From NCBI RefSeq assembly GCF_000186885.1, contig NC_014972.1, positions 120,001 to 152,000 on the forward strand: DNA of 32,000 nucleotides, in the 5' to 3' direction. How positions within the stretch are numbered: the stretch's first letter is position 1; each line of letters starts with the position of its first letter. The stretch comes from Desulfobulbus propionicus DSM 2032 (GTDB taxonomy: Bacteria > Desulfobacterota > Desulfobulbia > Desulfobulbales > Desulfobulbaceae). Positions 3,300 to 32,000 of this stretch are shown in pieces. Under the pieces are notes generated by a model. It had not been told where the DNA came from and ran no database searches. It saw only the letters and a list, made by a program, of their open reading frames with translations. The position numbers were made by a program, and so were the translations under genes.

Positions 3300-3349
3300 G
3301 GCCTCCAATTAACCCCACCCTCGTTTCCCTAAATCTCTCAGGATTGATC

Positions 3350-12060: not shown

Positions 12061-12151
12061 TCACCGCCCCCCGTGCCGGTCTCACCCTCGCCCGGTCACC
12101 CGGGTGATCTCCTGCACCGATAGTGCGGGCCTTTTACCAGGGCGCGCCGGT

Positions 12152-17187: not shown

Positions 17188-19094
17188 GATGCCTGCTCCG
17201 CGAGCGGGACGCTTACGCTCAGTTCACTGCCGCCCACGATATTCCTCGCCTCGATCCGGCCCTGCATGTTGTGCTCGATGATCATTTTTGACATGTACAG
17301 GCCGATGCCTGTCCCCATGGGCTTGGTGGAGAAATAAGGTTCGAAGATTTTGTCCAGAACATGCTCGGGAATTCCGCCGCCATTGTCCTGGACACTCACC
17401 ACGCCTTGGCCCTGGCGCACCCCGAGAGTAACCTGGATCCGGCCCTGCTCCTGCTTTGCGCCGGTGATCGCATCCCTGGCGTTGTTCAGCAAGTTGAGCA
17501 GGACCTGGGAATATTCGTTGGGAAAACCGAACAGGGTGCAGTCCTGGTCGATCTCCAGGGTGATCTCGATCCGGCAGTGGACAAAGCTCTCCGCCACCAT
17601 CTCGATCGCCAGCCTGATTTGCCGTTCGGCCGAGAAAGGTTGTTTGACCTTGTTGGGACGGAAAAAATCACGGAAGTCGTTGATGGTCGACGACATCTTC
17701 TGAATCAGGCGGTTGCCGGTAGCGATACATTCCGCCATATACTCGTTGGTGAGTTCGTCGTTCTCATGGGCGTAGTGGATGTTGGTGAGCAGCAGGGACA
17801 GAGTGTTCAGCGGCTGTCGCCACTGATGGGCGATGTTGCCGATCATCTCGCCCATGGCCGCCTGCCGCCCCTGGCTGATCAGCATCTGGTCCTTGCTCCG
17901 CAATTCGGCCACGGTTTCCTTTACCCGCAGTTGCAGTGACTGGTTGAGCTGCTCCAACAGGTGTTGCTTCTGCGCGAGGAGTTCGTCGGCCTTTCTGATG
18001 TCGCTGATATCACGAATGATGCTGAGCGCGTGCCATTCACTGTTGAGCGAAACGGCGGACAGGGACAGCGAAATGGGGAATTCCGAGCCGTCTTTTTTCC
18101 TGGCGAACAACTCATACGTCCTGCCAACGATTTTACCGCGGCCGCCGTGCGTTAATTTGGCCACGGCCCGTTCACTGGCGGTGCGGTACCGTTCCGGCAC
18201 GAGCAGGCGGTAGATATTTTGCCCCAGGGCCTCTTCGGCCGGATACCCCAGGATTCTTTCGGCAGCCGGGTTCCAGTAGGAAATGACGTCCTGAGAGTTC
18301 ATCATGACGATGGCGTCGTTGGCCGAATCCGTTAGCGTCCGCAACCGGATTTCGCTGGCCTCGGCGATCTCCTTGGCCTTGGTCAGTTCGTTGACCCGGT
18401 CCTGGATGGCCTGGGACATGAGATTGAAAGCTCTGCCCAGTTGACCGATATCGTCCTCTCCCTCCGGCAGCGGTTGCAGCGAGAAGTTGCCGTCCGCCAC
18501 TACGAGGCTCGCCCTGGTGAGAGACCGCATGTGCCGGGCCAACCAGAGGCCAAGGAGCAGGAGCACGAGGGAGGAAAGGATGATCTCGACAACCGCAATT
18601 CCCGCCCCCTGGATGAGGAGGGTTTTCCGCGCCGTCAGGATGCGGGTGAGGTTGAGGCCGAAGTGCAGGTCGCCCAGGGGTTGCTGGAGATAGGTGATGT
18701 GCCTGGCCACATGGTAGATGCCCTCCGTTAGCAGAAGACTACTGGAGAATGTCCTGCTGGCTTCCGGCAATGGCCGCTCGGCTGAAAAACCATCGGTCGT
18801 CAGGCGGCTGCCATGCCGATCCACGACCACGATATAGTTTAAGGAGTCGGTGACCGTGCTTTCGTCCAGTATGGCCTGGATCGTTGCGTAATCCCGTTGG
18901 GCCAGGGGGGCGGTCAGGGCAGCGATGAGGACGGGGCTAATTTCCTGAGCCTGGGCCTGCACCTGATCGGACATGGCCTGGTGAAAGAGCCGCAGGCTGT
19001 TCCCGACCAGCAGGGTGAGCATGAGGAATTCCAGCCCGATCGCCAGCAAGAGCAGGCGGCCGTGGGCGGTGTGCCACAGGCGAGGCTTTTTCAT
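17184..19094 (-). CDS. membrane sensor histidine kinase (2 TM, periplasmic loop, HAMP, PAS, kinase core)
   Basis: 636 aa. TM helices near the N-terminus and at LLIQGAGIAVVEIILSSLVLLLLGLWLA. HAMP-like segment. PAS (DAIVMMNSQDVISYWNPAAERILGY). H-box GNIAHQWRQPLN. DNGGGIP and GTGIGLYMS. ATGA overlap with the upstream gene at 19091-19094. Confidence 0.9.
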   Translation of the reverse strand: MKKPRLWHTAHGRLLLLAIGLEFLMLTLLVGNSLRLFHQAMSDQVQAQAQEISPVLIAALTAPLAQRDYATIQAILDESTVTDSLNYIVVVDRHGSRLTTDGFSAERPLPEASRTFSSSLLLTEGIYHVARHITYLQQPLGDLHFGLNLTRILTARKTLLIQGAGIAVVEIILSSLVLLLLGLWLARHMRSLTRASLVVADGNFSLQPLPEGEDDIGQLGRAFNLMSQAIQDRVNELTKAKEIAEASEIRLRTLTDSANDAIVMMNSQDVISYWNPAAERILGYPAEEALGQNIYRLLVPERYRTASERAVAKLTHGGRGKIVGRTYELFARKKDGSEFPISLSLSAVSLNSEWHALSIIRDISDIRKADELLAQKQHLLEQLNQSLQLRVKETVAELRSKDQMLISQGRQAAMGEMIGNIAHQWRQPLNTLSLLLTNIHYAHENDELTNEYMAECIATGNRLIQKMSSTINDFRDFFRPNKVKQPFSAERQIRLAIEMVAESFVHCRIEITLEIDQDCTLFGFPNEYSQVLLNLLNNARDAITGAKQEQGRIQVTLGVRQGQGVVSVQDNGGGIPEHVLDKIFEPYFSTKPMGTGIGLYMSKMIIEHNMQGRIEARNIVGGSELSVSVPLAEQAS

Positions 19095-19915
19095 TTCAGG
19101 TCGTTGATTACCCGCCTGACTTCCTCGGTAAAGACATCCATTGCCTCGAGTTCGCCTGGCCGTATCGCCCGATAGCCCCCCAGCTTGTTCTCAGTAAAAT
19201 ATGTTTGCGCTTTTTGTGTCCCGGCGAAGGTTGACAGCGCCGCTTCGATGGCTTGCCGATGGTCGGCTCTCCGGCTGTTTAGCAGGTACACTCGGCCCAA
19301 CATGGGTTCACTCTCGGCAATGATTCGCAGCTGCTTCCGGACCTCCGGCGCAAGTCGCTGAAAATTGGCCAGCGAAACAAACCCGGCATCTGCGTCCTTT
19401 GCCAGGAGGAGTTGGGCTACGCTGTCCGCAGCGCTGACGTATCGAACGGACTGCGGTTGCACTTGGTTCTGCTTGAGCCAGTGCTGACCCCACAGGGTAA
19501 CCTGGGAGGTCGGGCTCAACCCGAGTACTTTCTTGTCGTTCAGATCGGCCGGCGTATTGATGTCGCCATTCTGCAGACCAATCACCAACGACTTGAAGTC
19601 AGCCTTGTAAGTTAGAAGAGGGAGATAGCCAGCATCGAGCTGCAGCAAGCGAGCCTGCTGACCGGTGGTGACGACGAGATCGTATTCCTGGGCCAGCGCC
19701 CGTTTCGCGAATAGGTCAAAGTTGGGCGCGGTGGTTAATTCCACCGGCATGGCGAGCGATTTTTCCAGATACAGGCGAAGCGGTTCATACATCTGCAAGA
19801 TAAGCCGGGGACTGCTGTGCGGCGCGATTCCGATGACAAAGTGCTCCTCGTGGGCAGAGAGACAAATGGTGGGCCCAAGAATCAGCAGAATTAAGAATAA
19901 AATTAGTTTTTTCAT
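19091..19915 (-). CDS. PhnD-like (phosphonate-type) periplasmic binding protein
   Basis: ORF 19091..20092. I place the start at ATG 19915 (MKKLILFLILLILGPTICLSA, a signal peptide). The body resembles the PhnD/Phosphonate-bd family (FVIGIAPHSSPRLILQMYEPLRLYLEKSL..VELTTAPNFDLFAKRALAQEYDLV). Confidence 0.75.
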   Translation of the reverse strand: MKKLILFLILLILGPTICLSAHEEHFVIGIAPHSSPRLILQMYEPLRLYLEKSLAMPVELTTAPNFDLFAKRALAQEYDLVVTTGQQARLLQLDAGYLPLLTYKADFKSLVIGLQNGDINTPADLNDKKVLGLSPTSQVTLWGQHWLKQNQVQPQSVRYVSAADSVAQLLLAKDADAGFVSLANFQRLAPEVRKQLRIIAESEPMLGRVYLLNSRRADHRQAIEAALSTFAGTQKAQTYFTENKLGGYRAIRPGELEAMDVFTEEVRRVINDLK

Positions 19916-19981
19916 GCAGTTGTTTTTTTTGTTGGTATGAGAGGACATTCGCCTGGAAGGGTACACGTATCCTCCCACGAA

Positions 19982-20011
19982 ATTGTATAGCATTCTCCTT
20001 GAGGGAAACAA
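19982..20011 (-). promoter_or_regulatory. sigma70-type promoter candidate for the four-gene signalling operon
   Basis: The minus strand reads TTGTTT, an 18-nt spacer, then TACAAT, about 65 nt upstream of ATG 19915. The -35 is weak. Confidence 0.3.
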
Positions 20012-20358
20012 GGAAAGAATGGTTCGCCCGGAGATTGAGGACGGATGATACTTGATAGAGGACGTGGAAGCGTGATCTTTGTTCATTGGCAACTCGTGGA
20101 CAGGAGGGGGCTAATCTCGTGCTGAAATGTAATTCGTCGGAGATGGTGATAGCAGCATGCAAGATACCTGCCAGATTGATTGCCGGAGTCGTTTGCAGGA
20201 CAATGTGTTCTGCCTCCTCCTCAGTCGCGCGACCGAGGGGAACCGTGCGCATGACCTATAGATAAAACAGACCGGACGTAGGCCCGTGTGCCGCAACGGC
20301 GCGAAGCGGTTCCAATCGGAAAATTACGAACTATCTGCTCATGTTCGTGCTTTTTCTC

Positions 20359-20386
20359 TTGCAGCACTCATCGAATCATCTATAAA
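20359..20386 (+). promoter_or_regulatory. sigma70-type promoter candidate facing the recombination module
   Basis: TTGCAG (20359-20364), a 16-nt spacer, then TATAAA (20381-20386). This would give a leader of about 410 nt. Confidence 0.3.
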
Positions 20387-20721
20387 TATTTTCATTCTTC
20401 CGGCTCATTTTCAATGAGATACCCCTATTCAGGGTTTAGCTGAGCACGGTTTTCGTGTTCTTGCATTTCAGGTACGATGGCGGCGCTGTTGTTTCCGGTC
20501 GGGACGTTACATCGCTAAGGCGAACGGTCCCCTTCATCCGGCAGCAAAGCGCGCAATGGCTTGCGATTCTATTTTCTGCATCGCCTGCCCGTCAGCCTTT
20601 CCTTTTTCTTCCCGTCTATCGCTGAACTGACCTTGCCGCCGTGTTGCGGCTGACCGTTCCGGCACACTCCCTTTCCCGCACCGGCACTGACCCCTCAGTC
20701 CACCGGTTTCATCCATACCCA

Positions 20722-20730
20722 CCCCCCCCC
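20722..20730 (+). repeat. C9 homopolymer flanked by ATCCAT direct repeats
   Basis: ATCCAT ACCCA CCCCCCCCC ATCCAT spans 20711-20736, in the leader of the Rad52-like gene. Confidence 0.9.
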
Positions 20731-20737
20731 ATCCATC

Positions 20738-20784
20738 GGGAGCGATCTACCATGCTCCCGGCGGAGCCATGCGTTGTCGCTCCC
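20738..20784 (+). promoter_or_regulatory. compound stem-loop just upstream of the SD of the Rad52-like gene
   Basis: Outer 8-bp stem GGGAGCGA (20738-45) with TCGCTCCC (20777-84). Inner 5-bp stem GCTCC (20754-58) with GGAGC (20763-67). The SD AGGAGG is at 20794. Confidence 0.45.
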
Positions 20785-20806
20785 ATTATTCTCAGGAGGC
20801 ACCACC

Positions 20807-21469
20807 ATGGCACCACTGCAGGAACAGATCCAGGCCATCAACCAGCGCTTGCGCGCCTTCGGCATCGAGGCGGTCCAGGAGATCCGCATGACTGACCGGG
20901 ACGGCAAGACCATCGGTCAGGTCAAGTACGGCTACCGGCCGCAGTACGTCTTTGACAGCGTCAACGAAGTACTTGGTCCGGAGAACTGGCGCTACGAACT
21001 GACCCGCGAGGAGATCTTCGAGAACCAGGCGGTCGCCGAGGTCCGGCTTTTTGTCCGGGTTGACGGTGACTGGCTGTGCAAGGGCTCGCACAAGGGCCAG
21101 ATGCAGATCGTCAAAGGCAATGTCGGCGACGCCCAGAAAGGGGCGATCACCGATGCCATCCAGAAGTGCATGTCGCTGTTGTCCATCGGCAGCGATGCCT
21201 ACAAGGGCCTGCTGAAGCACGTCTTCCAACCGTCTAACAAAACGCCATCGACCCCACCCCCACCACCAACCAACCAACTTGCAGGCCCACCGCCTGTTGG
21301 CTCCGATCCCACCGTTGACCTGCCCAAGATCGCCGGCGTCACCTTCGAACACCGTCAGGGCGTGATTCTCGCCATGGGCGAGCACCTCTATGACAAGAAG
21401 GAGCTGCTCAAGGCCGCGGGCTTTCAATGGGACAAGACCGGCAAGGCCTGGCTGAAAAAAGCTGCCTGA
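20807..21469 (+). CDS. Rad52/Sak-family single-strand annealing protein with a C-terminal mini-domain
   Basis: ORF 20774..21469. ATG 20807 is preceded by AGGAGG. YVFDSVNEVLGPENW and GDAQKGAITDAIQKCMSLLSIGSDAY match the pattern of phage Rad52-like annealases. A Pro-rich linker follows, then ...YDKKELLKAAGFQWDKTGKAWL. Confidence 0.75.
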   Translation: MAPLQEQIQAINQRLRAFGIEAVQEIRMTDRDGKTIGQVKYGYRPQYVFDSVNEVLGPENWRYELTREEIFENQAVAEVRLFVRVDGDWLCKGSHKGQMQIVKGNVGDAQKGAITDAIQKCMSLLSIGSDAYKGLLKHVFQPSNKTPSTPPPPPTNQLAGPPPVGSDPTVDLPKIAGVTFEHRQGVILAMGEHLYDKKELLKAAGFQWDKTGKAWLKKAA

Positions 21470-21522
21470 TCACCCAACCCAACCCCGGAGGGAGTGAGAC
21501 CATTCCCTCGGCGGGAACCGGT

Positions 21523-21552
21523 GTCTCCTCCCTCATCCATTTAGGAGGAGAC
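21523..21552 (+). promoter_or_regulatory. hairpin that pairs the SD of the Cas4-like gene
   Basis: Perfect 9-bp stem GTCTCCTCC (21523-31) with GGAGGAGAC (21544-52) and a 12-nt loop. The 3' arm is the Shine-Dalgarno sequence of the ATG at 21557. Confidence 0.55.
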
Positions 21553-21556
21553 CACC

Positions 21557-22528
21557 ATGTCGGACCAGATGCTCACCACCCTGCAAGCCGCCCTGCAGCA
21601 GCTTGCCAGCCAGCAGACCGCAGCCACGCTCGGCGACCGCAGCACCTATCTCGGTGCCTCGGACATCGGCGCCTGCCCGCGCAAAACCATTCTCGCTAAA
21701 CGCAACGCCCCGGAGGCGGACCTGATCACCCTGTTGCGCCACCGCCGCGGCCACATGGCCGAGGAGATCGTGGCTGCCGCCTTCGCAGTCGCCGGGTTCA
21801 CCAACTTCCAGCGCCAGGTCGAGGTGCGCCACACCGGCGACATCCCGGTCATGGCCCACCTGGATTTTGTGTTCGTCTCGGAGGCCCGCAAGACCATGGC
21901 CGTGCTCGAGGTGAAATCGCCGGAGAACATCCCCACCGACCCCTACGGCGCCTGGGAGACCCAGCTGTACCTGCAAATGGGACTCCTGGCCGAGAACTGT
22001 CCGGACTACACCGTGGAAAAGGGCGCCATCCTGGCGGTCAACTTCGGTGCCCAGGGCATGCGCCTGTTCAACGGCTACACGCCCCAGGCCACCATCTACC
22101 AGGGGCTGATCGACCGGGCCGGTTCCATCTGGGACCAGTACCAGCGCTACAGCGCCGGCGACCTGGCCTTCCCGGGCATGGAAGCCGGCCCGCTCTGCGG
22201 CTACTGCCCCTTTCTTCTGGACTGTCCCAAGTTCGCGGCGGAAGAGGTGCAGGAACTGAACGAGAACGTCGAGATCCTTATCGAACTGCAGCACCAGCAG
22301 CGGGACCTGGAGGCCGAGATCGGCCTGCGCAAGACCGACCTGCTGGCCATCGTCAGCCAACGCGGCCCGCTCAAGGCCCACGGCCAATTGCTCCGCCAGG
22401 CGGTGCGCACCCGCAAGGTGCTCGACACCGACCGGCTCGGACAGTTCCTCCAGGGCTACGGCCAGTCGCTCGCTGATTTCCAGAAGAGCAGCACCTACTC
22501 CTTCCTGGAGATTCGCAAGGCCGCCTGA
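21557..22528 (+). CDS. PD-(D/E)XK exonuclease, Cas4/RecB-like, with four Cys (Fe-S type)
   Basis: HLDFVF...LEVKS (D...ExK), TQLYLQ, one N-terminal Cys (GACPRK) and C-terminal CGYCPFLLDC (C-x2-C-x5-C). It sits between an annealase gene and ssb. Confidence 0.7.
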   Translation: MSDQMLTTLQAALQQLASQQTAATLGDRSTYLGASDIGACPRKTILAKRNAPEADLITLLRHRRGHMAEEIVAAAFAVAGFTNFQRQVEVRHTGDIPVMAHLDFVFVSEARKTMAVLEVKSPENIPTDPYGAWETQLYLQMGLLAENCPDYTVEKGAILAVNFGAQGMRLFNGYTPQATIYQGLIDRAGSIWDQYQRYSAGDLAFPGMEAGPLCGYCPFLLDCPKFAAEEVQELNENVEILIELQHQQRDLEAEIGLRKTDLLAIVSQRGPLKAHGQLLRQAVRTRKVLDTDRLGQFLQGYGQSLADFQKSSTYSFLEIRKAA

Positions 22529-22623
22529 GCCGGCCGGATCGCAACACCCCAACCCATCATCGGGGAGCCAACCTTTCCCCGTGGCGGGGAGGGGTTGGTC
22601 CCTGTTGCTCAAGGAGAACCACC

Positions 22624-23016
22624 ATGTTGAACAAGACCATGCTGATCGGCAACCTCGGCGCGGACGTGGACATCCGCTACACCAAGAACCAGGTGGCCGT
22701 GGCCACCTTCCGGGTAGCCACCACCGAACGGTGGCGGGATGCCCAGGGCAACCCCCAGGAAGCCACCGAGTGGCACCGCATCGTGGCCTTTGCCAAGCTC
22801 GCCGAGATCTGCGGCGCCTACTTGGCCAAGGGCGCGCGGGTGTACATCGAAGGCCGCCTGCAGACCCGCAAGTGGCAGGACACGGACGGTGGCAACCGCT
22901 TCACCACGGAGATCATCGCCCGCGAGATGAAGATGCTCGGCGGCGGTGACCGCAACGCCCCGCCGGCACCGCCGGAGGAGCAGGAACCGCCCGTGAGTGA
23001 CGAGGTCCCGTTCTGA
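22624..23016 (+). CDS. ssb: single-stranded DNA-binding protein
   Basis: MLNKTMLIGNLGADVDIRYT...EWHRIVAF...VYIEGRLQTRKWQD, then a Pro-rich tail and the acidic tip DEVPF. Confidence 0.95.
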   Translation: MLNKTMLIGNLGADVDIRYTKNQVAVATFRVATTERWRDAQGNPQEATEWHRIVAFAKLAEICGAYLAKGARVYIEGRLQTRKWQDTDGGNRFTTEIIAREMKMLGGGDRNAPPAPPEEQEPPVSDEVPF

Positions 23017-23112
23017 TCGGTCCCTTGCCCTGAGCCTGGACCCCGCAGCCGCGGGGTTCGGGCTTGCCGGGCACAGGTGGCCGTCAGGCCCCCCCAACCA
23101 GGAGAACCGTGT

Positions 23113-23319
23113 ATGACCCAAATAACCGCACCCGCCCGGCAGGCCGCTCGCAGCAGCCTGAGCCCGGGTGATTCCCCGCGCACGCTTGAAACCATGATCC
23201 TCGATCTGCTCACCGATACCCTGCACCTGGCCCGGATCGAGGGGCTGGATGCCTGCCAGCTCGGCTCTGCCGCGATGGCCCGCTTCCTGGTCGAGATCAA
23301 GCACTCACGCAGCCACTGA
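23113..23319 (+). CDS. hypothetical protein (68 aa)
   Basis: ORF 23077..23319. ATG 23113 has AGGAGA 7 nt upstream. No family recognised. Same strand and format as its neighbours. Confidence 0.45.
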   Translation: MTQITAPARQAARSSLSPGDSPRTLETMILDLLTDTLHLARIEGLDACQLGSAAMARFLVEIKHSRSH

Positions 23320-23422
23320 CACTGCGGCCACTGCTCTCGGCCCACGGTCACGGTCATCGACCTGGCCGGGGCCGGGATGCTGAACATCCGCCAGATCGTT
23401 TCCCACCACCAACCACCCATCC

Positions 23423-23460
23423 GGGGGAGTCTGCCCCCATGGGGATGTCTCCCCCTTTTT
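23423..23460 (+). terminator. hairpin plus T5, intrinsic-terminator-like, inside the module
   Basis: 7-bp stem GGGGGAG (23423-29) with CTCCCCC (23449-55), followed by TTTTT (23456-60), then AAGGAGA and ATG 23475. Confidence 0.5.
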
Positions 23461-23474
23461 CAAGGAGAGACATC

Positions 23475-24041
23475 ATGCCCGACTATCTCACCGTTCGCAG
23501 CCACGGCGTCGTCACCTACTGCGATGGCCTCATCGCCCGCATTCAGGCGGATCAGGCCGAGGCCTATCTGCTCAGCCTGGTTGGCAGCCCGGAGCATATC
23601 CAGGCCACCTCGACCCATTTCACCATGGGCGGCGCCTGCCATATCACCGGCATCGAGTCCGTACCGCTCGAGTTGGGCCGTGCCCCTGGCCCCCTCCGCT
23701 CCATCCGCGCACGCAGGATCGGCGACGTGGTCACCAGGGTGATTATCAGCGCCGATCAGTTCGCCCGCACCGCCCTGCAGACCGAAACCGTCTGTTCCGC
23801 CATTGTCTTTGGCATGGACCTGGCCGCGGTCCGGCAGCAGGCCTGGCACCGCCTGGCCAACAGCACCACCGTGGCGCTGCTACCCGAGTGGCGCGACTGG
23901 TTGTGGGACGAAGTCCTGCAGCCGGAGCGGCTCTATTCCTTTGGCAACCCGCAACGGCGGCAGGCCTGGAGGATCAGCTGGCAGGAGGAGGAGTTGGCCG
24001 AACGGGTCCGGGCCGGCGTCCGGGAGCAGGTTCTCGGCTGA
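23475..24041 (+). CDS. hypothetical protein (188 aa)
   Basis: ORF 23439..24041. ATG 23475 has AAGGAGAG upstream. The upstream part of the ORF is occupied by the terminator-like hairpin. No family recognised. Confidence 0.55.
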   Translation: MPDYLTVRSHGVVTYCDGLIARIQADQAEAYLLSLVGSPEHIQATSTHFTMGGACHITGIESVPLELGRAPGPLRSIRARRIGDVVTRVIISADQFARTALQTETVCSAIVFGMDLAAVRQQAWHRLANSTTVALLPEWRDWLWDEVLQPERLYSFGNPQRRQAWRISWQEEELAERVRAGVREQVLG

Positions 24042-24142
24042 CCGAACCGCAGACCAATCCGAACAGGGGAAGGCAGGCCTGCCCCTGAAAGACAAGGTTG
24101 CGGCGCAGGACCACGGCCGCAATTCAAGCGAAAAAAATCCCT

Positions 24143-24181
24143 GACGGGGCACACGGCCCCGATGGGCTGTTGTGCCCCGTC
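24143..24181 (+). promoter_or_regulatory. 11-bp perfect stem-loop immediately upstream of the radC SD
   Basis: GACGGGGCACA (24143-53) with TGTGCCCCGTC (24171-81) and a 17-nt loop. The SD AGGAGG follows at 24185. Confidence 0.55.
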
Positions 24182-24196
24182 CCCAGGAGGCACGAC

Positions 24197-24676
24197 ATGC
24201 TCTACAGCAGAGACACCAGCGGGTGCTACCAGCCCGCATCCAGGGACACCATCCTTGCCGCGGCCCGCAGGCTGAGCAGTTGTCAGCTCCGGCGCGGGGC
24301 GGCCATCACCTCACCCCTTGCCGCCAGGGAGGCCATCGGCCTCAAACTGGCCGGACTGGAACACGAATCGTTCGCCTGTCTGTTCCTCGACGGCCGCCAC
24401 CAGGTGCTCGCCTGGCGGGAGCTGTTCCACGGCTCGGTCAACCGGACCACGGTCCACCCGCGCGAGATCGTCAAGGAGGCGCTGCGGCTGAACGCCGCGG
24501 CGGTCATCCTGGCGCACAACCACCCCTCGGGCAGCACCCTGCCGAGCAGTGAGGACATCGAACTGACCAAGGCGCTCACCGAGATCCTGGCGATCATCGA
24601 TGTGCGCGTGCTCGATCACCTGATCGTGGGCGAAGAGATCGTCGCCCTGACCGAAACCGGCCACCATCAACCATGA
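24197..24676 (+). CDS. radC: RadC-like JAB/MPN domain protein
   Basis: ORF 24098..24676. ATG 24197 is preceded by AGGAGG. ILAHNHPSGSTLPSSEDIELTKAL (the HNHPSG...SxxD JAMM motif) and VLDHLIVG. Confidence 0.9.
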   Translation: MLYSRDTSGCYQPASRDTILAAARRLSSCQLRRGAAITSPLAAREAIGLKLAGLEHESFACLFLDGRHQVLAWRELFHGSVNRTTVHPREIVKEALRLNAAAVILAHNHPSGSTLPSSEDIELTKALTEILAIIDVRVLDHLIVGEEIVALTETGHHQP

Positions 24677-24734
24677 AACCCGTTGGGGACAGATGCCCCG
24701 ACGGGCTCGTCCCCGGCAATCAAGGAGCGAGATC

Positions 24735-25655
24735 ATGCAACCTGTCAAACCATCCATCTACGAGCAAATCACCGGCAAGATCGTCACCGCCCTGGAGAAC
24801 GGCGTCAACCCCTGGGCCAAACCCTGGCACACGGTCAGCTACGGACCGTTTCGTAATGCGCTCACCAACCGCCCGTACCGGGGCATGAACGTGCTCCTGC
24901 TCAACCTGGTGGCGCTGTCGCGGGGGCATGTCGACCCGCGCTGGCTCACCTTTCGCAATGCCGAGCAGTTGGGCGGCCATGTGCGCAAGGGCGAGAAAGG
25001 TGCGGCCATCGTCTTCTGGAAGTTCCTGCCCGCCCGGGACCGGGATGGCGAGACCGAACCGGACGCGGCCAACGATGACGAACCGGAGCGGAAACAGGTC
25101 CCCTTTGCCCGCAGCTACACGGTGTTCAACGTGGAGCAGTGCGAGGGGCTGAAGCTGCCACCGCTGGACGCGGAGGAAATGCAAGGCAGGAGAGAGGACA
25201 ATGAACCGGCGGAGCGGGTGCTGGCCCTGGCGCAGCTGCAGCATGGCGGCAACAAGGCCTGTTACCTGCCCACGCCGGACCTGGTGCTCCTGCCGAACCG
25301 ATCCGCGTTCGAGAACTGCGACTTCTACTACGCCACCGGCTTCCACGAGATCTGCCACTGGACCGGGCACGCGACCCGGCTGAACCGGGTGTTCGGCAGC
25401 CGCTTCGGTGACCTCGGCTATGCCTTCGAGGAACTGGTGGCCGAGATCGGCGCCGCCTTCCTCGGCGCACAGACCGGTATCCCGTTTGAGAACATGCGCC
25501 ATCCGGAGTACATCCACCACTGGCTGCAGATCCTCAAGGGCGACAGCAAGGCTATCTTCACCGCCGCGGCCAAGGCCCAGCACGCCGTCGACTTTGTCCT
25601 CGACCAGGCCGGGATCGTCCCTGCCGAGGAAGAGACGCTGCCGGCGGCCGCTTGA
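24735..25655 (+). CDS. ardC: ArdC-family anti-restriction protein (N-terminal ssDNA-binding domain plus zincin-like metalloprotease domain)
   Basis: ORF 24693..25655. ATG 24735 has AAGGAG upstream. IYEQITGKIV..NPWAKPW..YRGMNVLLL..WLTFRNAEQLGGHVRKGEKG matches the ArdC N-domain pattern. HEICHWTGH is an HExxH motif. Confidence 0.9.
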   Translation: MQPVKPSIYEQITGKIVTALENGVNPWAKPWHTVSYGPFRNALTNRPYRGMNVLLLNLVALSRGHVDPRWLTFRNAEQLGGHVRKGEKGAAIVFWKFLPARDRDGETEPDAANDDEPERKQVPFARSYTVFNVEQCEGLKLPPLDAEEMQGRREDNEPAERVLALAQLQHGGNKACYLPTPDLVLLPNRSAFENCDFYYATGFHEICHWTGHATRLNRVFGSRFGDLGYAFEELVAEIGAAFLGAQTGIPFENMRHPEYIHHWLQILKGDSKAIFTAAAKAQHAVDFVLDQAGIVPAEEETLPAAA

Positions 25656-26166
25656 ATACCGAAAGAAAACCCGTAACAAAAACGGCTGCTCCGACCATGA
25701 CGGTCGGGCAGCCGTTTTTTGTTGCGGCTTGATGGGGAAAGAAGGACAAGAAGCAGAGTCTTCGGTCAGAAGCGAAGAAACCTGTAAGTTCGTTTTCAAA
25801 TGCTTTTGCACTTAACGGGTCATTGTTTACTTCGTAAGGCAACTGCATCCAAGGTTGCCTTTCACCAATTGTTCTATCATTCAGGCCGTTTTCAGATACA
25901 CATAACCTATATTCGGCGTATAATGATTTTCGCTTTCCAAAAAATGGAATCATCCCGATCGCCAATGTAGCTGGTGTAATTACCATTTTATCATGCGGGT
26001 TATCAACTGACTTAGCCCCATATTGATCTATAGTCCCAGTGGAATTCATTGACAGAATAACGGATTTAAAGCGAAGCTCAATTGGAGGAACATTGACCCC
26101 CCAAGAGTCCATGATAAAACTGTCTTCTTCCACGTTTAATACAACCGGAAGCAGGCAAAATGTCAT
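25558..26166 (-). pseudogene. unassigned ORF, probably a 3'-truncated remnant
   Basis: The low-GC part (about 25800-26166) has no recognisable domain and poor SD sequences. The reading frame has no stop of its own. It runs through the bidirectional terminator and ends antisense inside ardC, which is not what an intact gene would do. Confidence 0.3.
25678..25720. terminator. strong bidirectional rho-independent terminator
   Basis: 13 bp of stem: CGGCTGC (25683-89) with GCAGCCG (25708-14), and CCGACC (25691-96) with GGTCGG (25702-07). 5-nt loop. A5 lies on the left (25678-82) and T6 on the right (25715-20). It is 23 nt after the ardC stop. Confidence 0.8.
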
Positions 26167-26498: not shown

Positions 26499-27647
26499 TT
26501 ACAGGCCATCTGTAAGATTATGTAGAATATTCCTTGCATTAAGCAGAACATCATCATATGTCATAATGTTTATGCGAGGGTATAAGTTATCATTAAATGA
26601 TTTAAGAACTCTCAGCTGTGTACTATTCATTCCAGCCTTTCGCCCAATGACCACTACACCCTTTGGCGTGTGAATTCCAGGAAATCCGTGAGATTGAGCA
26701 TAGGCAATATTGTCTTCTATCCACACAAACCAATTCAGAATTTGCCCAATTGCATGTGACAATGCACCTGATGGATGAGGGTATCCTGTACATGGTTGGT
26801 CCTGTGGTTTTTCTATTTCAACGAAAATATACTCGTCATCAAGGCGTCGTATAACAAAGTCTGTTTTCCACTCTGCCCCAAGATATTGACGATCTACTAT
26901 TGAAGAAGCAAGTGGGTCAATTAATGCTGGGTTTTTTTCAAAAAACTGCTGACACTCACTCTCTGGCCTGTTTTTTGCTATCAAACTTTCAAGCTCGTCA
27001 CATATCGGTTCACTAATTCTTAGCGTCCCTCTGGAAATGGCCTTAAGCACTATATCAATGCCTGATGGACCATCATCGCCCCTTTTAGCCATTTTTGAAC
27101 TCATAAAAATGGCAACAAGTTTATGCCGTTGCTCTGGATCTGAAAGAAATGCATGCACAATACTTGTCAGTGCACTTTCCGCATAAGCAGGAAGGTGCTG
27201 CTGGGTACTTAAACTGGTAACGCTATTTTGAAGGTTCTCATATGCATCATCTTCGAGGTAAGCTTGAGTGAATCTAAGTATTCCGCAAATTTCATTCCAT
27301 CGGGACAATGCCACCGATATCAAGATGTGCGGGACCCAGTACTCTCCCTCTAGTCCCAATTCCAGCAGTTCTCGAATGCCAGTCTCCCCATATATGACAA
27401 GCGAATAGATGCTTGGCATTTCAAGATAAAAATCATCATAAATACCAGAGGGAGCTCGGCGAGCGAGGTCTACATGTTCCAGGATTCGCTTCGGTGATGG
27501 ATTTGTCAATACATCGGCAAGATCCAAGACAAACTGGCGCTCCTTTTCTTTCCACTTGCTGAGATCAAGTTTTTCTATTCTGTCTTCTGGGTTTTTCTCG
27601 GATTCGGAAGTTTTTTTTGTAATATTCCCAGCATGGTCTGTCGGCAA
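26499..27647 (-). CDS. Shedu-like defence nuclease (DUF4263-type C-terminal domain) with an unassigned helical N-terminal half
   Basis: TTG start at 27647 with AGGAGG 5 nt upstream. The C-terminal ~150 aa follows the DUF4263/SduA pattern: CQQFFEKNPALI, LGAEWKTDFVIRRLDDEYIFVEIEKP, SHAIGQILNW, KGVVVIGRK, INIMTYDDVLL. Confidence 0.6.
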   Translation of the reverse strand: MPTDHAGNITKKTSESEKNPEDRIEKLDLSKWKEKERQFVLDLADVLTNPSPKRILEHVDLARRAPSGIYDDFYLEMPSIYSLVIYGETGIRELLELGLEGEYWVPHILISVALSRWNEICGILRFTQAYLEDDAYENLQNSVTSLSTQQHLPAYAESALTSIVHAFLSDPEQRHKLVAIFMSSKMAKRGDDGPSGIDIVLKAISRGTLRISEPICDELESLIAKNRPESECQQFFEKNPALIDPLASSIVDRQYLGAEWKTDFVIRRLDDEYIFVEIEKPQDQPCTGYPHPSGALSHAIGQILNWFVWIEDNIAYAQSHGFPGIHTPKGVVVIGRKAGMNSTQLRVLKSFNDNLYPRINIMTYDDVLLNARNILHNLTDGL

Positions 27648-27897: not shown

Positions 27898-29790
27898 TTA
27901 GACGCCCACTTGTCCACCTGGGGTGGTCATTACTTCTCCTGCCATTCGGTTAGCGACTGCAGCAATCTCCGCTTCGGTAAGCCGATCAAGAGTCCAACCC
28001 TTTGCGAACTTTGCCGTCTCCGATTTAGGCAATTGGTCCTCTTCGAGATTTCGAATTCGAACTCGTGCGGGCATTGCAGCACCTTCGCCAACGAAGATAG
28101 CCTCCTGTTGAGCGAGATTCGGCAGTACTTTTGTCATGCCTGACAATCCATCTGGCAAGAAACGAGAGACGTGCTGTTGATCCGCTGCGTTTGTAAGCCG
28201 AAGAACGAGCCATGTGCCACATTGTGAAATCACTGTACTTTCTATATCGGCAGGGCGCTGACTCACGAGCATGAGGCCAATACCGTATTTCCGCCCTTCA
28301 CGAGCTATCCTTCGGATCGCGGTTTGAGCCGCTGCATACTCAGCCTCCCCTCTGTCGGGGACATATCGATGAGCCTCTTCACACACAAAGACGACTGGAT
28401 CGCGCCGTCTTTCCTCCGTTGTTTGGTAAACTTTATACTGAAACAACAGGCGAGCCAACATGGCAGCAAGTGGACCGGCGACTTCATTTGGAAGACCCGA
28501 AATATCCAAAATACGAATGTCTTGATCTACGCCTCCCTCACCTTGGATCTGTCCGACCAACTGGGCGATAATATGCTCAAGTGAATGGCTCTGTTCGTTC
28601 CACTCCTTCATCATAAACTGAATCCGCGGATCACGACGGAGCATTGATAGTTTGTCTAAAATCGATTTGAAGTCCTTTGCAAAATCACCAGGAGGAACCT
28701 TTTCTGTGTTCTGAGTATTTTTCTTCATTCGAGCTGCTTGAAGGAATTCAATGTGATTTTTGAGTTCTTCCAAACTAAAACAGCGCGGCTTATCTCGATC
28801 AAATTCGATCAGTTGTTCTATGCTGACACCAGCTTTCGGACGAGGAGTATCGGGATCACCGCCATCTGCTGGAATGGGCACGTCGTAGGTGGTCGGAGCG
28901 GGATCAACCAAATCGAATGCCACCATCCGTGCATGGGTCAACGCTTTGTAAATTACGTTGTTCTGTGAAGTTGCCTCATGCTCGGTTTTACCGATTACAA
29001 GCCGTCTGAACTCGTCAGCCGACATGAGCCAATAGGGAAGGCTTATCGGAGTTCCAGTCGTCTCTTCGTTTCCAAGCGGGTCGTAAGCACGATAAATGAT
29101 CGCACGTTTCTTGAATGCGTGGCCGTATTCCCCATGCGGATCAATTATTAGAATTCTCGGGTGGCAGACTGCATCCGGTACAGGGGTGTGCTCCAGCATG
29201 CTGTGAAGCAAAGCGGCAACCGCACCAGACTTTCCCGAACCTGTTGAACCGAGCACCGCGCAATGCATGCCCAGCATTTTATCCACGTTTGCCCGACAGA
29301 GTGCATTGTCTGCTCCAACGTAATGAGCAAATGGAACGAGCGGACTATATTCTCCGTGATTCTGTTGCCCTTCAGCAGCCGAATATATCTGAGTAGTCTC
29401 CTCGCGAGTAAGCAGATGCACACTTTGACGGGGTAGCGGGTAGGTCGTCACACCTCGAACGAACCGGAGCTTTTGGTCTGCTACATTCCATATACCTTCC
29501 GCAAACAATTCGACTTCCATTAACCGTTGATCGGCATCTGGTGGAATAGGCTTTGTAATCTCAAGGAGATCCTCAGACCTCATTCTTAGTAGCGTCACGA
29601 AACCGAAGACCAAGCGCCTTCCAAAATGAACTTTTACGATGCTACCGATCTGACCGATGGGATAAACTCTCCCCTCAAAGGTTCGAGTGAGCTCCGTGAC
29701 ATCTCCTGATAACTCTACCCGAATGGTAGTTCCGGACACTTCGACGATGTGCCCAATCTTCAGGTCCGGAATAAGTTCAAACGTATTCAT
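27898..29790 (-). CDS. herA: HerA-family ATPase (HAS-barrel plus FtsK/HerA P-loop)
   Basis: ORF 27898..29850. ATG 29790 overlaps the SIR2 stop (ATGA). Motifs: GHIVEVSGTTIRVEL..GSIVKVHF (barrel), AVLGSTGSGKS (Walker A), VVFVCEEAHRY (Walker B), GIGLMLVSQRPADI, LRLTNAADQ. Confidence 0.85.
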   Translation of the reverse strand: MNTFELIPDLKIGHIVEVSGTTIRVELSGDVTELTRTFEGRVYPIGQIGSIVKVHFGRRLVFGFVTLLRMRSEDLLEITKPIPPDADQRLMEVELFAEGIWNVADQKLRFVRGVTTYPLPRQSVHLLTREETTQIYSAAEGQQNHGEYSPLVPFAHYVGADNALCRANVDKMLGMHCAVLGSTGSGKSGAVAALLHSMLEHTPVPDAVCHPRILIIDPHGEYGHAFKKRAIIYRAYDPLGNEETTGTPISLPYWLMSADEFRRLVIGKTEHEATSQNNVIYKALTHARMVAFDLVDPAPTTYDVPIPADGGDPDTPRPKAGVSIEQLIEFDRDKPRCFSLEELKNHIEFLQAARMKKNTQNTEKVPPGDFAKDFKSILDKLSMLRRDPRIQFMMKEWNEQSHSLEHIIAQLVGQIQGEGGVDQDIRILDISGLPNEVAGPLAAMLARLLFQYKVYQTTEERRRDPVVFVCEEAHRYVPDRGEAEYAAAQTAIRRIAREGRKYGIGLMLVSQRPADIESTVISQCGTWLVLRLTNAADQQHVSRFLPDGLSGMTKVLPNLAQQEAIFVGEGAAMPARVRIRNLEEDQLPKSETAKFAKGWTLDRLTEAEIAAVANRMAGEVMTTPGGQVGV

Positions 29791-30965
29791 AGCGCACACG
29801 CTTCCGCTCCACAGTTTAGCATTTTGGTCACGCCAGAAAACGTCCACCAATCTCGTTTTGATCCAGAAACCGGAGGTGCTTGAGGTCCGTCTGCACCAAC
29901 ATACACGCCATCCTCCGAGATGACATAGACACGTTTACCCCACGGACCGGTCCTCCACCTTTCGAGATTCGGATTGAGTTTCTGAGTAAAGGAGAGAACC
30001 GTTGTTTTGTTCTCCGGACGTTGAAGCGTCAATTCAATTTCCTGGTTTATGTGCTCGTCCCCGAAGCTGTATCCACATGTTGCGAGAACATTTTCCTCCC
30101 GTGCCCCAAGTGAACGCCGGAATAGATCAAATTGGGCTGCAAATGGATCCCTCTGAGTCGCGAGGTATTTTGTGGATTGCGGGTAAATTAGAACCCGAGA
30201 AACCTTCTTTGGATAGAGATCTCCGTCGCGGACGCGCCAGACTCGGTCATCTTCTCCTAAGTGCCAGTCGATCGACCCGTGAAGTTTGATTACATGCGCA
30301 CGATCTCTGAGATTTGGCTCTTCGTCGCCGTAACGATGGCTGCGATATGCGACCGCGCCGCCAGAGAAGCCGTCCCAATACGAGAAGCCTCCAAGTGAAA
30401 GGGCGTCTTCGAGGAGAGTGTCATAGTTGGTGGTAAATAATCGGACCGCTCTCCGTCGTTCTGCGATTCCAGCTTGGCTTCTATTGAAGAGGGCAGAGAC
30501 GAATGCTAAATGGTCATCGATAACGACAATACGGTGCCTATCCGTCCCTATTTCCTCAGAAATTCCCCCAGGCTGAGCAGGTTTGTAACCCCATCGAATG
30601 GTCTCAGCAATCCATGTCAGAATTCTTTGGTGAAGACCATCAAGGTCATCCAATGATAGAGAAATAGCGTCGAAGGCGACCTTCTTGTCCTTTGAGCGGT
30701 CGGCGATCGCGCGGTGATCTCCGAGCTGACTCAAGATGTGCTCGATATGCGAATCGTCAGGAAGCTGGCTCTTTACGAACTCGAGAACTTTGATGTCATT
30801 CGGTTCCCCCTCGTCTTTTGCCCTCGTGAATACCCGATCGGTCAGCGGCCACATCAAAGGAATTCCAGCACCGAGGCTGATTCCTGCACCGAACAGCCAC
30901 GATTGATTACTTGCTGCCAAGAGATTGTCGAGCTGGGATAGAGTGTCCTTTGTTACTGGGTCCAT
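29787..30965 (-). CDS. SIR2-family NADase-type protein (SIR2_2-like)
   Basis: ORF 29787..31001. ATG 30965 has AGGAGA 9 nt upstream. Motifs: WLFGAGISLGAGIPLMWPL, RLFTTNYDTLLEDAL, VIKLHGSIDWH. Confidence 0.85.
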   Translation of the reverse strand: MDPVTKDTLSQLDNLLAASNQSWLFGAGISLGAGIPLMWPLTDRVFTRAKDEGEPNDIKVLEFVKSQLPDDSHIEHILSQLGDHRAIADRSKDKKVAFDAISLSLDDLDGLHQRILTWIAETIRWGYKPAQPGGISEEIGTDRHRIVVIDDHLAFVSALFNRSQAGIAERRRAVRLFTTNYDTLLEDALSLGGFSYWDGFSGGAVAYRSHRYGDEEPNLRDRAHVIKLHGSIDWHLGEDDRVWRVRDGDLYPKKVSRVLIYPQSTKYLATQRDPFAAQFDLFRRSLGAREENVLATCGYSFGDEHINQEIELTLQRPENKTTVLSFTQKLNPNLERWRTGPWGKRVYVISEDGVYVGADGPQAPPVSGSKRDWWTFSGVTKMLNCGAEACAL

Positions 30966-31083
30966 GTGCTTTGAATCTCCTTTTTTGTTGCAGCAGAACA
31001 AATTATTGTCCGGTTTCCAGCTATCATTCAGCTTTTCTGGATTATCCGTTCGTGATTGATGGATTTTGGGTTTGGCCTAACTG

Positions 31084-31251
31084 GACACCGGCGGCACTCT
31101 CGGTGAGCTGCCGCTTCCAGGTCGTGATCTGGGTCGGATGGACCTCGTAGTGCTGCGCCAATTCGCCGAGAGTCTTCTCACCGACAATGGCTTCCAGAGC
31201 CACCTTCGCCTTGAAGGCCGCTGAATGGTTCCGTCTCGTTCCTTTTGCCAT
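31084..31251 (-). pseudogene. truncated IS3-family transposase orfA (N-terminal HTH part only)
   Basis: MAKGTRRNHSAAFKAKVALEAIVGEKTLGELAQHYEVHPTQITTWKRQLTESAAGV is the typical IS3-family OrfA N-terminus, with AAGGAG 6 nt upstream of ATG 31251. The similarity stops after about 56 aa, exactly where the GC content drops. No orfB is present. Confidence 0.7.
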
Positions 31252-31273
31252 GTTCTGCTCCTTATTGTGCCCT

Positions 31274-32000
31274 TCACAGGGCGTTACGGGTAGCAGATTT
31301 TCCACTTAACGGCTTGTCCAATTTTCCGCAGCCACCTCTCAGGCGCAGCGCATTCATAATGACGCTGACCGAGGATAGAGACATGGCCGCCGCGGCAAAA
31401 ATCGGGCTCAGGAGTATTCCGAAAAACGGGTACAAAAGACCTGCCGCGACAGGAACACCGACCGAGTTGTACACGAAGGCGAAAAACAGGTTCTGCCGGA
31501 TATTGCGCATCGTTGCGAGAGAAAGCTGCCGCGCTTCCACAAGACCCATTAGGTCCCCTCGCAACAGCGTGATACCGGCACTTTCGATGGCGACATCGGT
31601 CCCCGTACCCATGGCCACGCCCACATCCGCCGTGGCCAGAGCCGGAGCATCGTTGACCCCGTCACCGGCCATGACCACCACGCGCCCCTCGTCCTTCAGG
31701 CGCTGAACAACCTTTCCTTTGTCTTCGGGCAAGACTTCCGCTTCAACGGCATCAATAGGCAGTTTGCGGGCAACCGCTTCCGCCGAAGTGCGGTTGTCGC
31801 CGGTGAGCATGACCACCCGGATGCCCTCTTTTTGCAGGGCGGCAAGGGCCGCTTCCGTGGTTGCCTTGACCGGATCGGCAATGGCAAGCAGGCCGCAGAC
31901 CTTGCCGTTCACTGCGGCAAAGATCACCGTGGCCCCGTCCCTTCGCAGTTCGTCGGCCGCATCCGCAAAGTCTGCCGTCTCGACTCCTTCCGCTTCCATC
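31274..32000 (-). CDS. heavy-metal-translocating P1B-type ATPase, C-terminal part (partial, continues beyond the window)
   Basis: [41 protein letters not shown], and the last two TM helices ([42 protein letters not shown]). Metal specificity cannot be read from this part. Confidence 0.9.

Follow-up and report, generated by a model that had tools for sequence, protein, structure and literature searches.

We analysed a stretch of 32,000 nt of the Desulfobulbus propionicus DSM 2032 genome (contig NC_014972.1, positions 120,001 to 152,000; below, the window, in whose coordinates all positions are given). Within it, seven co-oriented open reading frames (ORFs) on the + strand at 20807-25655 code for a Rad52-fold annealase, a Cas4/RecB-type nuclease, SSB, two uncharacterised proteins (orf68 and orf188), a RadC-like protein and the anti-restriction protein ArdC. 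This seven-gene unit, called here the module or the operon, is probably an orphan copy of an operon for host-defence evasion and recombination whose origin lies in the F-type conjugative elements of Desulfobulbales. Judging from the sequence comparisons described below, the operon appears to be detached here from transfer functions but is still under selection; it lies at one margin of a variable defence island. We read it, by analogy, as an hde-like operon of Desulfobulbales conjugative elements, since it would follow the same logic as the hde operon and is built from different protein families.

All seven genes had been proposed in an earlier note made from the sequence alone, and each of them was confirmed at its place. 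A predicted promoter, a long structured leader, seven genes led by Shine-Dalgarno (SD) sequences and one strong terminator make up a single 5.4-kb unit. We set the borders of the operon at 20352-25741, as defined by the homology between copies located in unrelated contexts; the variable island extends further right, to the end of an IS3 remnant at 31339.

Distant relatives and close copies of the operon

A scan for relatives, with one genome taken per species, produced 22 loci with the nuclease identity ranging from 46 to 81%. Twenty of these loci were labelled Desulfobulbales or unclassified deltaproteobacterial metagenome-assembled genomes (MAGs). The other two were MAG contigs labelled 'Puia' (L027; the L-numbers denote the loci or contigs compared with the window) and 'Marinilabiliales' (L031), both of which may have been mis-binned. 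Three genomes carried two copies of the operon. We observed that the annealase-nuclease core was constant across the relatives, with the variable parts including DUF932 and DUF2958 proteins, a small serine resolvase, AbiEi/AbiEii, a DUF6094 methyltransferase and an SNF2 helicase; umuDC genes were seen as well.

Conjugation genes were found near some of the relatives. For example, in L023 and L024 (the latter, contig NZ_JACHEO010000011.1, being from the isolate Desulfoprunum benzoelyticum) an annealase-nuclease-SSB-RadC block was accompanied by the gene of a type IV secretion system (T4SS) coupling protein, situated 5-7 kb upstream on the opposite strand, with an HD protein beyond the coupling protein in L024. 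This coupling protein (TraG-D_C/TrwB) shared 49% identity with its counterpart on the BuS5 plasmid. The same arrangement, with the coupling protein 5-8 kb away, was present in the complete chromosome of Desulfopila sp. IMCC35008 (L063; CP050700.1, around 5.69 Mb), and in L027 TraE (E=3e-45) was located ~7 kb from the homologous block. In the Desulfosarcina BuS5 plasmid NZ_CP087953, a homologous cluster of SSB, nuclease, annealase-like, DUF932, toprim, JAB and DUF6094 genes adjoins the TraN/TraU/TrbC/TraF genes and the type IV coupling protein (T4CP) gene of an F-type T4SS. Plasmid pPRO1, typed MPF_F, is similar to the BuS5 plasmid in this arrangement. At the level of sequence comparison, an origin of the operon in a conjugative element is supported, since distant relatives lie 5-8 kb from a T4CP or TraE gene in chromosomes as well as in an F-type plasmid.

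The comparison with plasmids suggested in the earlier note yielded homologues in F-type plasmids (NZ_CP087953, pPRO1). At the DNA level, matches in 72,556 plasmids were limited to short stretches of SSB or RadC, with coverage of no more than 6%. According to the same note, its reading would fall if the block were conserved core genome in all relatives, with no mobility genes within tens of kb. Because several genomes carry two copies, the block is not conserved core genome, and the reading is not refuted in this way.

Among 95 ORFs flanking the relatives we saw no tyrosine integrase (Pfam, best 25 of 74 families; a weak match is possible). Among the families listed, the only recombinases near the relatives were small serine resolvases, DDE transposases and a Tn5053-like tniABQ set. 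This set (rve and Mu-C transposase, TniB, TniQ and resolvase) was inserted directly 3' of the nuclease gene at L028:13277-18737; the second copy on the same chromosome, L029, had a DDE transposase, a SMEK-NACHT protein and a group II intron reverse transcriptase instead. A rearrangement of another kind was seen at L016:11072-12012, where codons 1-32 of SSB were fused to ArdC from codon 26 on, with orf68, orf188 and RadC deleted; a second ArdC C-terminal fragment was located 5 kb further on, before AbiE genes. In most relatives the block was flanked by defence systems, such as type I restriction-modification, reverse transcriptases, a DndC-like protein and SMEK-NACHT, and also GmrSD, a pPIWI-associated nuclease, a SIR2-HerA pair and DruA.

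For close copies, the borders were compared in 29 contigs with copies 93-95% identical. The breakpoints of these copies fell exactly at the promoter and at the terminator, and copies with this degree of identity were situated in 7 unrelated left contexts (25 flanks) and 7 unrelated right contexts (12 flanks). The commonest left neighbour, directly 5' of the promoter in 16 of the 25 flanks (L002, L006, L007, L009, L053-L057, L059-L062, L067-L069), was a gene of the SRAP family (PF02586). The family consists of abasic-site ssDNA (single-stranded DNA) crosslinking peptidases, and the gene may be a facultative eighth component of the operon whose role is related to ssDNA. The other left contexts were an intact IS66, a czc efflux cluster, FHA/PP2C genes, a polysaccharide cluster and the signalling cluster of the window. 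In L064 and L065 the operon was located directly between ordinary-looking polysaccharide or signalling genes on both sides, without cargo. A SRAP gene was also present ~9 kb upstream in a distant relative (L033:169-846); it is absent from the window. We found no inverted repeats, direct repeats or recombinase gene at the breakpoints of the unit.

One of the contigs, L066, represents a near-identical strain with the same left flank, 99.6-100% identical to the window over 10812-20487. The comparison of the window with L066 showed zero mismatches over 19480-20487 and then 93 differences in 1.4 kb from 20488; the operon allele of L066 at the same site was 6.6% diverged. Since the identity runs to 20487 and the divergence starts from 20488, the operon body has been replaced by a diverged allele, with the crossover inside the invariant leader. 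The crossover position (20488) is at the 3' edge of the ~85-nt conserved block described in the next section. By analogy with known systems, relaxed recombination by a Rad52-like recombinase would fit this allele swap. In a metagenome scan for empty sites, made with the phosphonate-binding protein encoded in the left flank, the homologues were all only ~50% identical and the site lacked synteny. Exact look-ups of the window proteins returned only the same context or contigs ending before the site.

Could the operon belong to a large intact integrative and conjugative element (ICE), with T4SS, relaxase and integrase genes beyond the right end of the window and with the defence genes and a P-type ATPase gene as cargo? 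We consider this unlikely, even though in the relatives a T4CP or TraE gene is 5-8 kb away and defence systems in most cases cluster at the operon, metal-efflux and ATPase genes adjoin other copies, and the window includes only 6 kb to the right of the operon. However, the T4SS genes of the relatives are upstream, the side on which here 20 kb are occupied by signalling genes that are 99.6-100% identical in a strain with a different operon allele. Moreover, the copies in L064 and L065 are flanked directly by polysaccharide and signalling genes, and the ~30 contigs with close copies have no T4SS gene.

The sharpness of the breakpoints, seen without repeats or a recombinase gene, may also be explained if the 5.4-kb unit moved or swapped alleles by means of its own annealase and nuclease, via single-strand annealing and with neither an integrase nor a transposase, and promoted the capture of neighbouring defence cargo. 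The allele-swap crossover in the invariant leader would agree with such a process, as would the formation of hybrid ICEs promoted by SXT Bet and Exo (PMC2786100). Still, annealing requires homology on both sides, and none was seen between the differing flanks; besides, RecA recombination of the host or activity of insertion sequences (IS66 and IS3 remnants are nearby) could give the same patterns. We therefore regard the exchange of the unit by its own enzymes as very unlikely. It is equally doubtful that the operon is a new kind of mobile or exchangeable cassette, in which annealing-based recombination by the annealase, nuclease and SSB would copy the unit between genomes or exchange it, and would recruit adjacent defence cargo. 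Such a cassette would do without an integrase, a transposase or transfer genes of its own, with the ~85-nt block of the leader and the terminator serving as recombination handles.

With respect to selection, all seven genes were under purifying selection, with ratios of nonsynonymous to synonymous polymorphism (pN/pS) of 0-0.35, and up to 0.7 for orf68, at pS of 0.03-0.22 (five comparisons). Strong purifying selection in orphan copies would be expected as well from a domesticated host operon of DNA repair and recombination, e.g. one mending self-inflicted or phage-induced breaks beside defence islands, with no role in a mobile element. The operon also has its own sigma70-type promoter and a conserved leader, and the same chromosomal neighbourhood (PPDK...operon) was observed in L016 and in L053-type contigs with operon proteins ~72% identical. 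Nevertheless, domestication appears decidedly unlikely given the seven unrelated contexts per side for 93-95% identical copies, the two copies in three genomes and the presence of the anti-restriction protein ArdC, which has no obvious use for resident, already methylated DNA.

Several observations weigh against the origin in F-type conjugative elements that we favour. First, conjugation, integrase and relaxase genes were all missing from the ~30 contigs with close copies, including contigs of 33-38 kb and 20 kb of a 237-kb contig. Second, the relatives near conjugation genes were only 46-57% identical to the operon of the window, and in L023, L024 and L063 transcription of the operon points away from the T4SS genes. 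Third, we saw no Frpo-like fold over the -35 and -10 boxes, which are left unpaired in the predicted folds. Finally, the benefit that genes of the entry phase would bring to a resident chromosome is not evident. On the other hand, the purifying selection and the sharp borders running from promoter to terminator fit a unit that is still used, unlike a decaying remnant. The proposal of the earlier note that this is a region of a conjugative or integrative element was borne out in the resemblance to regions of establishment and counter-defence and in the location of relatives near T4SS genes; for the window copy itself it found no support, in that relaxase, T4SS, integrase and tRNA genes as well as att repeats are missing from the 20 kb to its left and the 6 kb to its right.

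Layout, control signals and proteins of the operon

The coordinates of the operon features, along with those of its neighbours, are given in Table 1. The starts of orf68, orf188, RadC and ArdC are corrected ones; they were accepted because the independent gene calls on other contigs and the SD positions agree. As the earlier note had claimed, the SD sequences are strong: AGGAGG, AGGAGA or AAGGAG is located ~7 nt 5' of the ATG of all seven genes.

Table 1. Positions of the operon components and of neighbouring features in the window
Feature	Position	Strand	Evidence or details
Predicted sigma70-type promoter	20359..20386	+	-35 TTGCAG 20359-20364, spacer 16 nt, -10 TATAAA 20381-20386
Predicted structured leader, ~410 nt	20393..20806	+	alignments, nhmmer, RNAalifold, folding z-scores
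Rad52-fold single-strand annealing protein (predicted), 220 aa	20807..21469	+	Pfam sub-threshold, AF2 model, Foldseek
Cas4/RecB-type PD-(D/E)XK nuclease, 323 aa	21557..22528	+	PHROG matches, conserved residues
SSB, 130 aa	22624..23016	+	PF00436 E=3e-37
orf68, small protein, 68 aa	23113..23319	+	good SD; 68-69 aa gene call on independent contigs
orf188, 188 aa	23475..24041	+	predicted alpha/beta fold
RadC-like JAB/JAMM protein, 159 aa	24197..24676	+	PF04002 E=1e-41
ArdC anti-restriction protein, 306 aa	24735..25655	+	PF08401 ArdcN E=1e-36; PF18818 MPTase-PolyVal E=5e-41
Intrinsic terminator	25681..25721	+	15-bp stem (9+6 bp, one bulge), 5-nt loop, T6
Shedu defence nuclease SduA (outside operon)	26499..27647	-	PF14082 4e-20; PADLOC SduA 4.6e-30
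SIR2-HerA defence system	27898..31001	-	HerA 27898-29850, SIR2 29787-31001; PADLOC HerA 8e-140, SIR2 4e-149; Pfam DUF87, SIR2_2
IS3-family element, 5' remnant	31124..31339	-	left end and first ~45-60 OrfA codons; right edge of variable island

The promoter makes the left edge of the conserved unit, with homology between differing contexts starting at a T-run just 5' of the -35 box, at ~20352. We observed that the spacing of the -35 TTGnnn and the TAnnnT-type -10 was kept across 15 copies, with variation in the hexamers themselves. Just 3' of the promoter there is a noncoding block of ~85 nt (20397-20480), also present in L001-L009, L016-L020, L022 and L026 and recovered in 15 loci by the nhmmer profile. 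This block is almost invariant even among copies whose genes share only ~70% identity. It includes three hairpins (20404-20418, 20423-20434 and 20442-20460), and RNAalifold predicted three helices for the block; compensatory changes affected two pairs, and there were several G-U substitutions. The G-U substitutions favour a structure formed by the leader at the RNA level. A second conserved leader hairpin (20738-20784) is positioned directly before the SD sequence at 20794-20799. In 7 loci the leader region folded better than its dinucleotide shuffles, on both strands, with z from -1.5 to -6.5. The comparison of the leader with Rfam gave zero matches even at E<=1.

The right edge of the conserved unit is the terminator, and homology stops at 25720-25741, just past its T-run. 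The terminator reads AACGGCTGC(T)CCGACC-ATGAC-GGTCGGGCAGCCGTT, followed by T6, and proved to be stronger than had appeared in the first scan for the earlier note, in which it was already called strong. It is kept with compensatory changes in L016 and L026, relatives that are ~70% identical. On the opposite strand, an ORF of 202 codons (25558-26166) begins in the low-GC cargo downstream of sduA and crosses the terminator into the region antisense to ArdC. It had zero matches in Pfam or PADLOC and is probably a gene cut off at the junction of the cargo and the operon.

The gene identities proposed earlier held up, for SSB, RadC and ArdC by Pfam, for the annealase by its structural model and Foldseek, and for the nuclease by PHROG matches and motifs. 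The annealase matched Pfam Rad52_Rad22 (PF04098) with E=3e-3 and 17.8 bits, under the gathering cutoff of 20.3. The search of PDB with its sequence profile found nothing relevant. In the AlphaFold (AF2) model, built after alignment with 36 homologues, the N-terminal 128 residues had a predicted local distance difference test score (pLDDT) of 80-94. When this model was compared with PDB by Foldseek, all 25 of the top 25 matches were human RAD52 or yeast Mgm101 (E from 1e-6 to 1e-3, probability 1.0). Since all of the best structure matches are RAD52 or Mgm101, the model identifies the first gene product as a predicted Rad52-fold annealase, with the N-terminal beta-beta-beta-alpha fold of the Rad52-like superfamily; one of its homologues carries the UniRef name 'Rad52/22 family'. 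The N-terminal annealase domain is followed by a Pro-rich disordered linker and a conserved C-terminal domain of ~45 aa, which is present even in the BuS5 plasmid homologue. The pN/pS of the annealase was 0.08-0.15.

The nuclease matched the PHROG families of RecE-like (E 1e-7) and Cas4-domain (E 1e-6) exonucleases, with no Pfam family at E<=0.01 and no match of its sequence in PDB. Across 10 sequences, down to 31% identity, residues D103, E118, Q136/Q140 and C40/C214/C217/C223 were invariant and K120 was nearly so. The four cysteines follow the pattern C40, then C214-x2-C217-x5-C223. The Q136-x3-Q140 stretch reads QLYLQMG; at this place RecB/Cas4-family nucleases carry the QxxxY motif, and the Tyr here is off the canonical +4 position. 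The combination of D...ExK, a Q-rich stretch and four Cys is what we take to be the signature of Cas4/RecB-type Fe-S nucleases. The protein also has a helical C-terminal extension, and its pN/pS was 0.05-0.09. The annotations of its homologues on plasmids read 'PD-(D/E)XK nuclease' or 'Dna2/Cas4 domain'.

The SSB protein ends with an acidic C-terminal tip (...DEVPF). Its amino-acid sequence was 100% identical in 531 collection blocks, and its pN/pS was 0-0.07. The small protein orf68, which had zero matches in Pfam, PHROG or PADLOC, showed the weakest constraint of the operon (pN/pS 0.2-0.7). For orf188 we found zero family matches in Pfam, PHROGs or PADLOC as well, and none of the 113 proteins of its family had a Pfam domain or an informative name. 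The AlphaFold model of orf188 had a pLDDT of 91.5 and a predicted template modelling score (pTM) of 0.86, and gave no fold match with E<0.01 in PDB and BFVD. Of the 12 distant relatives with orf188, 9 have it between the DUF6094 methyltransferase and SNF2 helicase genes, both missing from the window; the pN/pS of orf188 was 0.17-0.27. The RadC-like protein has an intact JAMM motif (HNHPSG...SSED; the translation contains HNHPSGSTLPSSED) and a pN/pS of 0.11-0.20. ArdC matched the PHROG anti-restriction protein with E=2e-80; it combines an N-terminal ssDNA-binding ArdcN domain with a zincin metalloprotease domain, within which the HExxH motif reads HEICH.

Judging from these protein families, the Cas4-type nuclease would resect double-strand ends, SSB would coat the exposed single strand and the Rad52-fold annealase would pair the coated strand with a complementary strand. 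The outcome could be a RecA-independent repair of restriction- or CRISPR-induced breaks, along with homeologous recombination of diverged copies. ArdC would bind ssDNA and, by its metalloprotease domain, blunt type I restriction; RadC, orf68 and orf188 may be accessory proteins. In this genome the operon persists, and strains probably exchange its alleles by homologous recombination via the conserved ends, an exchange that is in part shown by the comparison of the window with L066.

Surroundings of the operon in the window

The G+C content was 0.642 in the module, 0.594 in the left flank and 0.467 in the downstream cargo, contrary to the earlier impression that the module was similar to its surroundings. 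To the left, positions 1-20092 are filled by a dense run of signalling genes, including a response regulator-GGDEF protein, three PAS histidine kinases, a PAS-GGDEF-EAL-response regulator protein, a sigma54 activator and two periplasmic binding proteins; a phosphonate-type binding protein is among the products of this stretch. The ORFs 322-858, 935-1348, 3344-3859 and 3925-4830 of this run have no Pfam family.

To the right, the sduA cargo is low in G+C (0.38-0.46) and is followed by the SIR2-HerA system. The ORFs listed for HerA and SIR2 share 64 nt (29787-29850), and because of this overlap one of the two genes probably starts further in than listed. A diverged SIR2-HerA pair (31% and 43% identity) was also located 3' of the operon in Desulfobulbus rhabdoformis (L025).

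The ORF of the IS3 remnant (31042-31305, - strand) has the translation MAKGTRRNHSAAFKAKVALEAI...HPTQITTWKRQL, which resembles IS3 OrfA. At its outer end the remnant overlaps a P-type ATPase gene (31274-31999) by the last ~22 codons, at the 3' end of that gene. This 215-bp piece of IS3 recurs ~870 bp past ArdC in L001, L053, L054, L055 and L057, with other DNA beyond; in these five contigs the piece is followed by a restriction-modification cluster.

Every long ORF of the 32-kb window was scanned, and no integrase, relaxase, T4SS or phage structural gene was detected, in agreement with the earlier note; the only trace of this sort was the IS3 OrfA remnant. Neither tRNA genes nor Rfam families were detected in the window, and no flanking repeats of the att type rose above chance in the 20 kb to the left and 6 kb to the right of the operon. 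The one candidate, a 15-nt direct repeat with copies at 25804 and 31298 on either side of the defence cargo, was at the 95th percentile of shuffles and was treated as chance. We identified no origin of transfer (oriT) and no relaxase in the window or in any relative.

Comparison with known systems

The hde operon of IncC/SXT elements joins anti-restriction genes to ssb-bet-exo, acts in the recipient and repairs breaks made by CRISPR (PMC7498323). By analogy, it appears to be the closest functional analogue of the operon described here, which would be assembled from non-orthologous parts. Both have SSB, annealase, exonuclease and anti-restriction genes in a single operon (PMC7498323); both are carried by conjugative elements (here, in relatives), and the shared logic would be to survive cleavage at entry by RecA-independent repair. 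However, Bet of hde belongs to the RecT family (PF03837), compared to the Rad52-fold annealase here. Likewise, Exo is of the YqaJ family (PF09588), in contrast to the Cas4/RecB-type nuclease with four Cys, and the anti-restriction part consists of Vcrx089 (AAA_5 + CbbQ_C) with Vcrx090, whereas here it is ArdC. In the Pfam search, none of PF03837, PF09588 and AAA_5/CbbQ_C was matched by the operon proteins. Besides, the gene order differs, RadC and two uncharacterised genes are extra here, and the operon of the window has no linked transfer genes.

Seemingly, the 'repair plus anti-restriction' entry strategy of gammaproteobacterial IncC/SXT was assembled independently, from other families, in conjugative elements of the sulfate-reducing Desulfobulbales. 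Such an operon could outlive its element as a selected and widely exchanged orphan unit beside defence islands. The compact set of annealase, nuclease and cognate SSB is a candidate for recombineering in anaerobic Thermodesulfobacteriota. Two candidates for counter-defence functions are orf68 and orf188, the latter having a confident predicted fold with no match in PDB or BFVD. A strongly conserved leader element, without a match in Rfam, is a part of the operon as well.

The leading regions of conjugative plasmids offer another comparison, as islands in which genes for SSB and anti-restriction are found together with methyltransferase, toxin-antitoxin and umuDC genes (Samuel et al. 2024, PMC11541004). 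The DUF6094 methyltransferase, SNF2 helicase, DUF932, DUF2958, AbiE and UmuDC genes of the relatives belong to the classes that this paper reports for leading regions. Similar to these islands, the window has co-oriented SSB and anti-restriction genes, and methyltransferase, toxin-antitoxin (AbiE) and umuDC genes are found in the relatives of the operon; uncharacterised small genes, many in number, are a further likeness (PMC11541004). On the other hand, a leading region is defined by the adjoining oriT and by the transferred strand used as a template, compared to the operon, for which neither oriT nor relaxase was identified. The promoter of the operon also looks like a conventional double-strand one, rather than an Frpo-like fold.

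Phage recombination modules of the lambda Red, Sak and Erf types are similar in having a Rad52-fold annealase, a nuclease of the PD-(D/E)XK superfamily and a cognate SSB (De Paepe et al. 2014, PMC3945230). According to that paper, Rad52-like recombinases drive relaxed homologous recombination and tolerate diverged partners. That the operon is itself the recombination module of a prophage or a phage satellite seems extremely improbable. Trios of annealase, exonuclease and SSB are typical of temperate phages, to be sure, and PHROG families match the nuclease, SSB, RadC and ArdC. However, the nuclease had no match among 50,697 phage records, and IMG/VR gave only two nuclease hits, at 27-30% identity. 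Genes for structural proteins, lysis or terminase were missing from the window and from every locus examined, and the relatives are linked to T4SS genes instead. Beyond the missing phage context, the operon differs from the phage modules in the extra conserved C-terminal domain of its annealase, common to the BuS5 plasmid protein, and in its nuclease, which is Cas4-like with the Fe-S signature, not lambda-Exo or RecE.

Finally, hsdRMS is overcome only when ArdC of the IncW plasmid R388 is present in the recipient (Gonzalez-Montes et al. 2020, PMC7213743). The predicted ArdC of the window is alike in the ArdcN and zincin MPTase Pfam domains, the HExxH motif and similar size. The two proteins differ in genetic context: the ArdC gene of R388 is a separate gene of the leading region, whereas that of the window is the last gene of a recombination operon.

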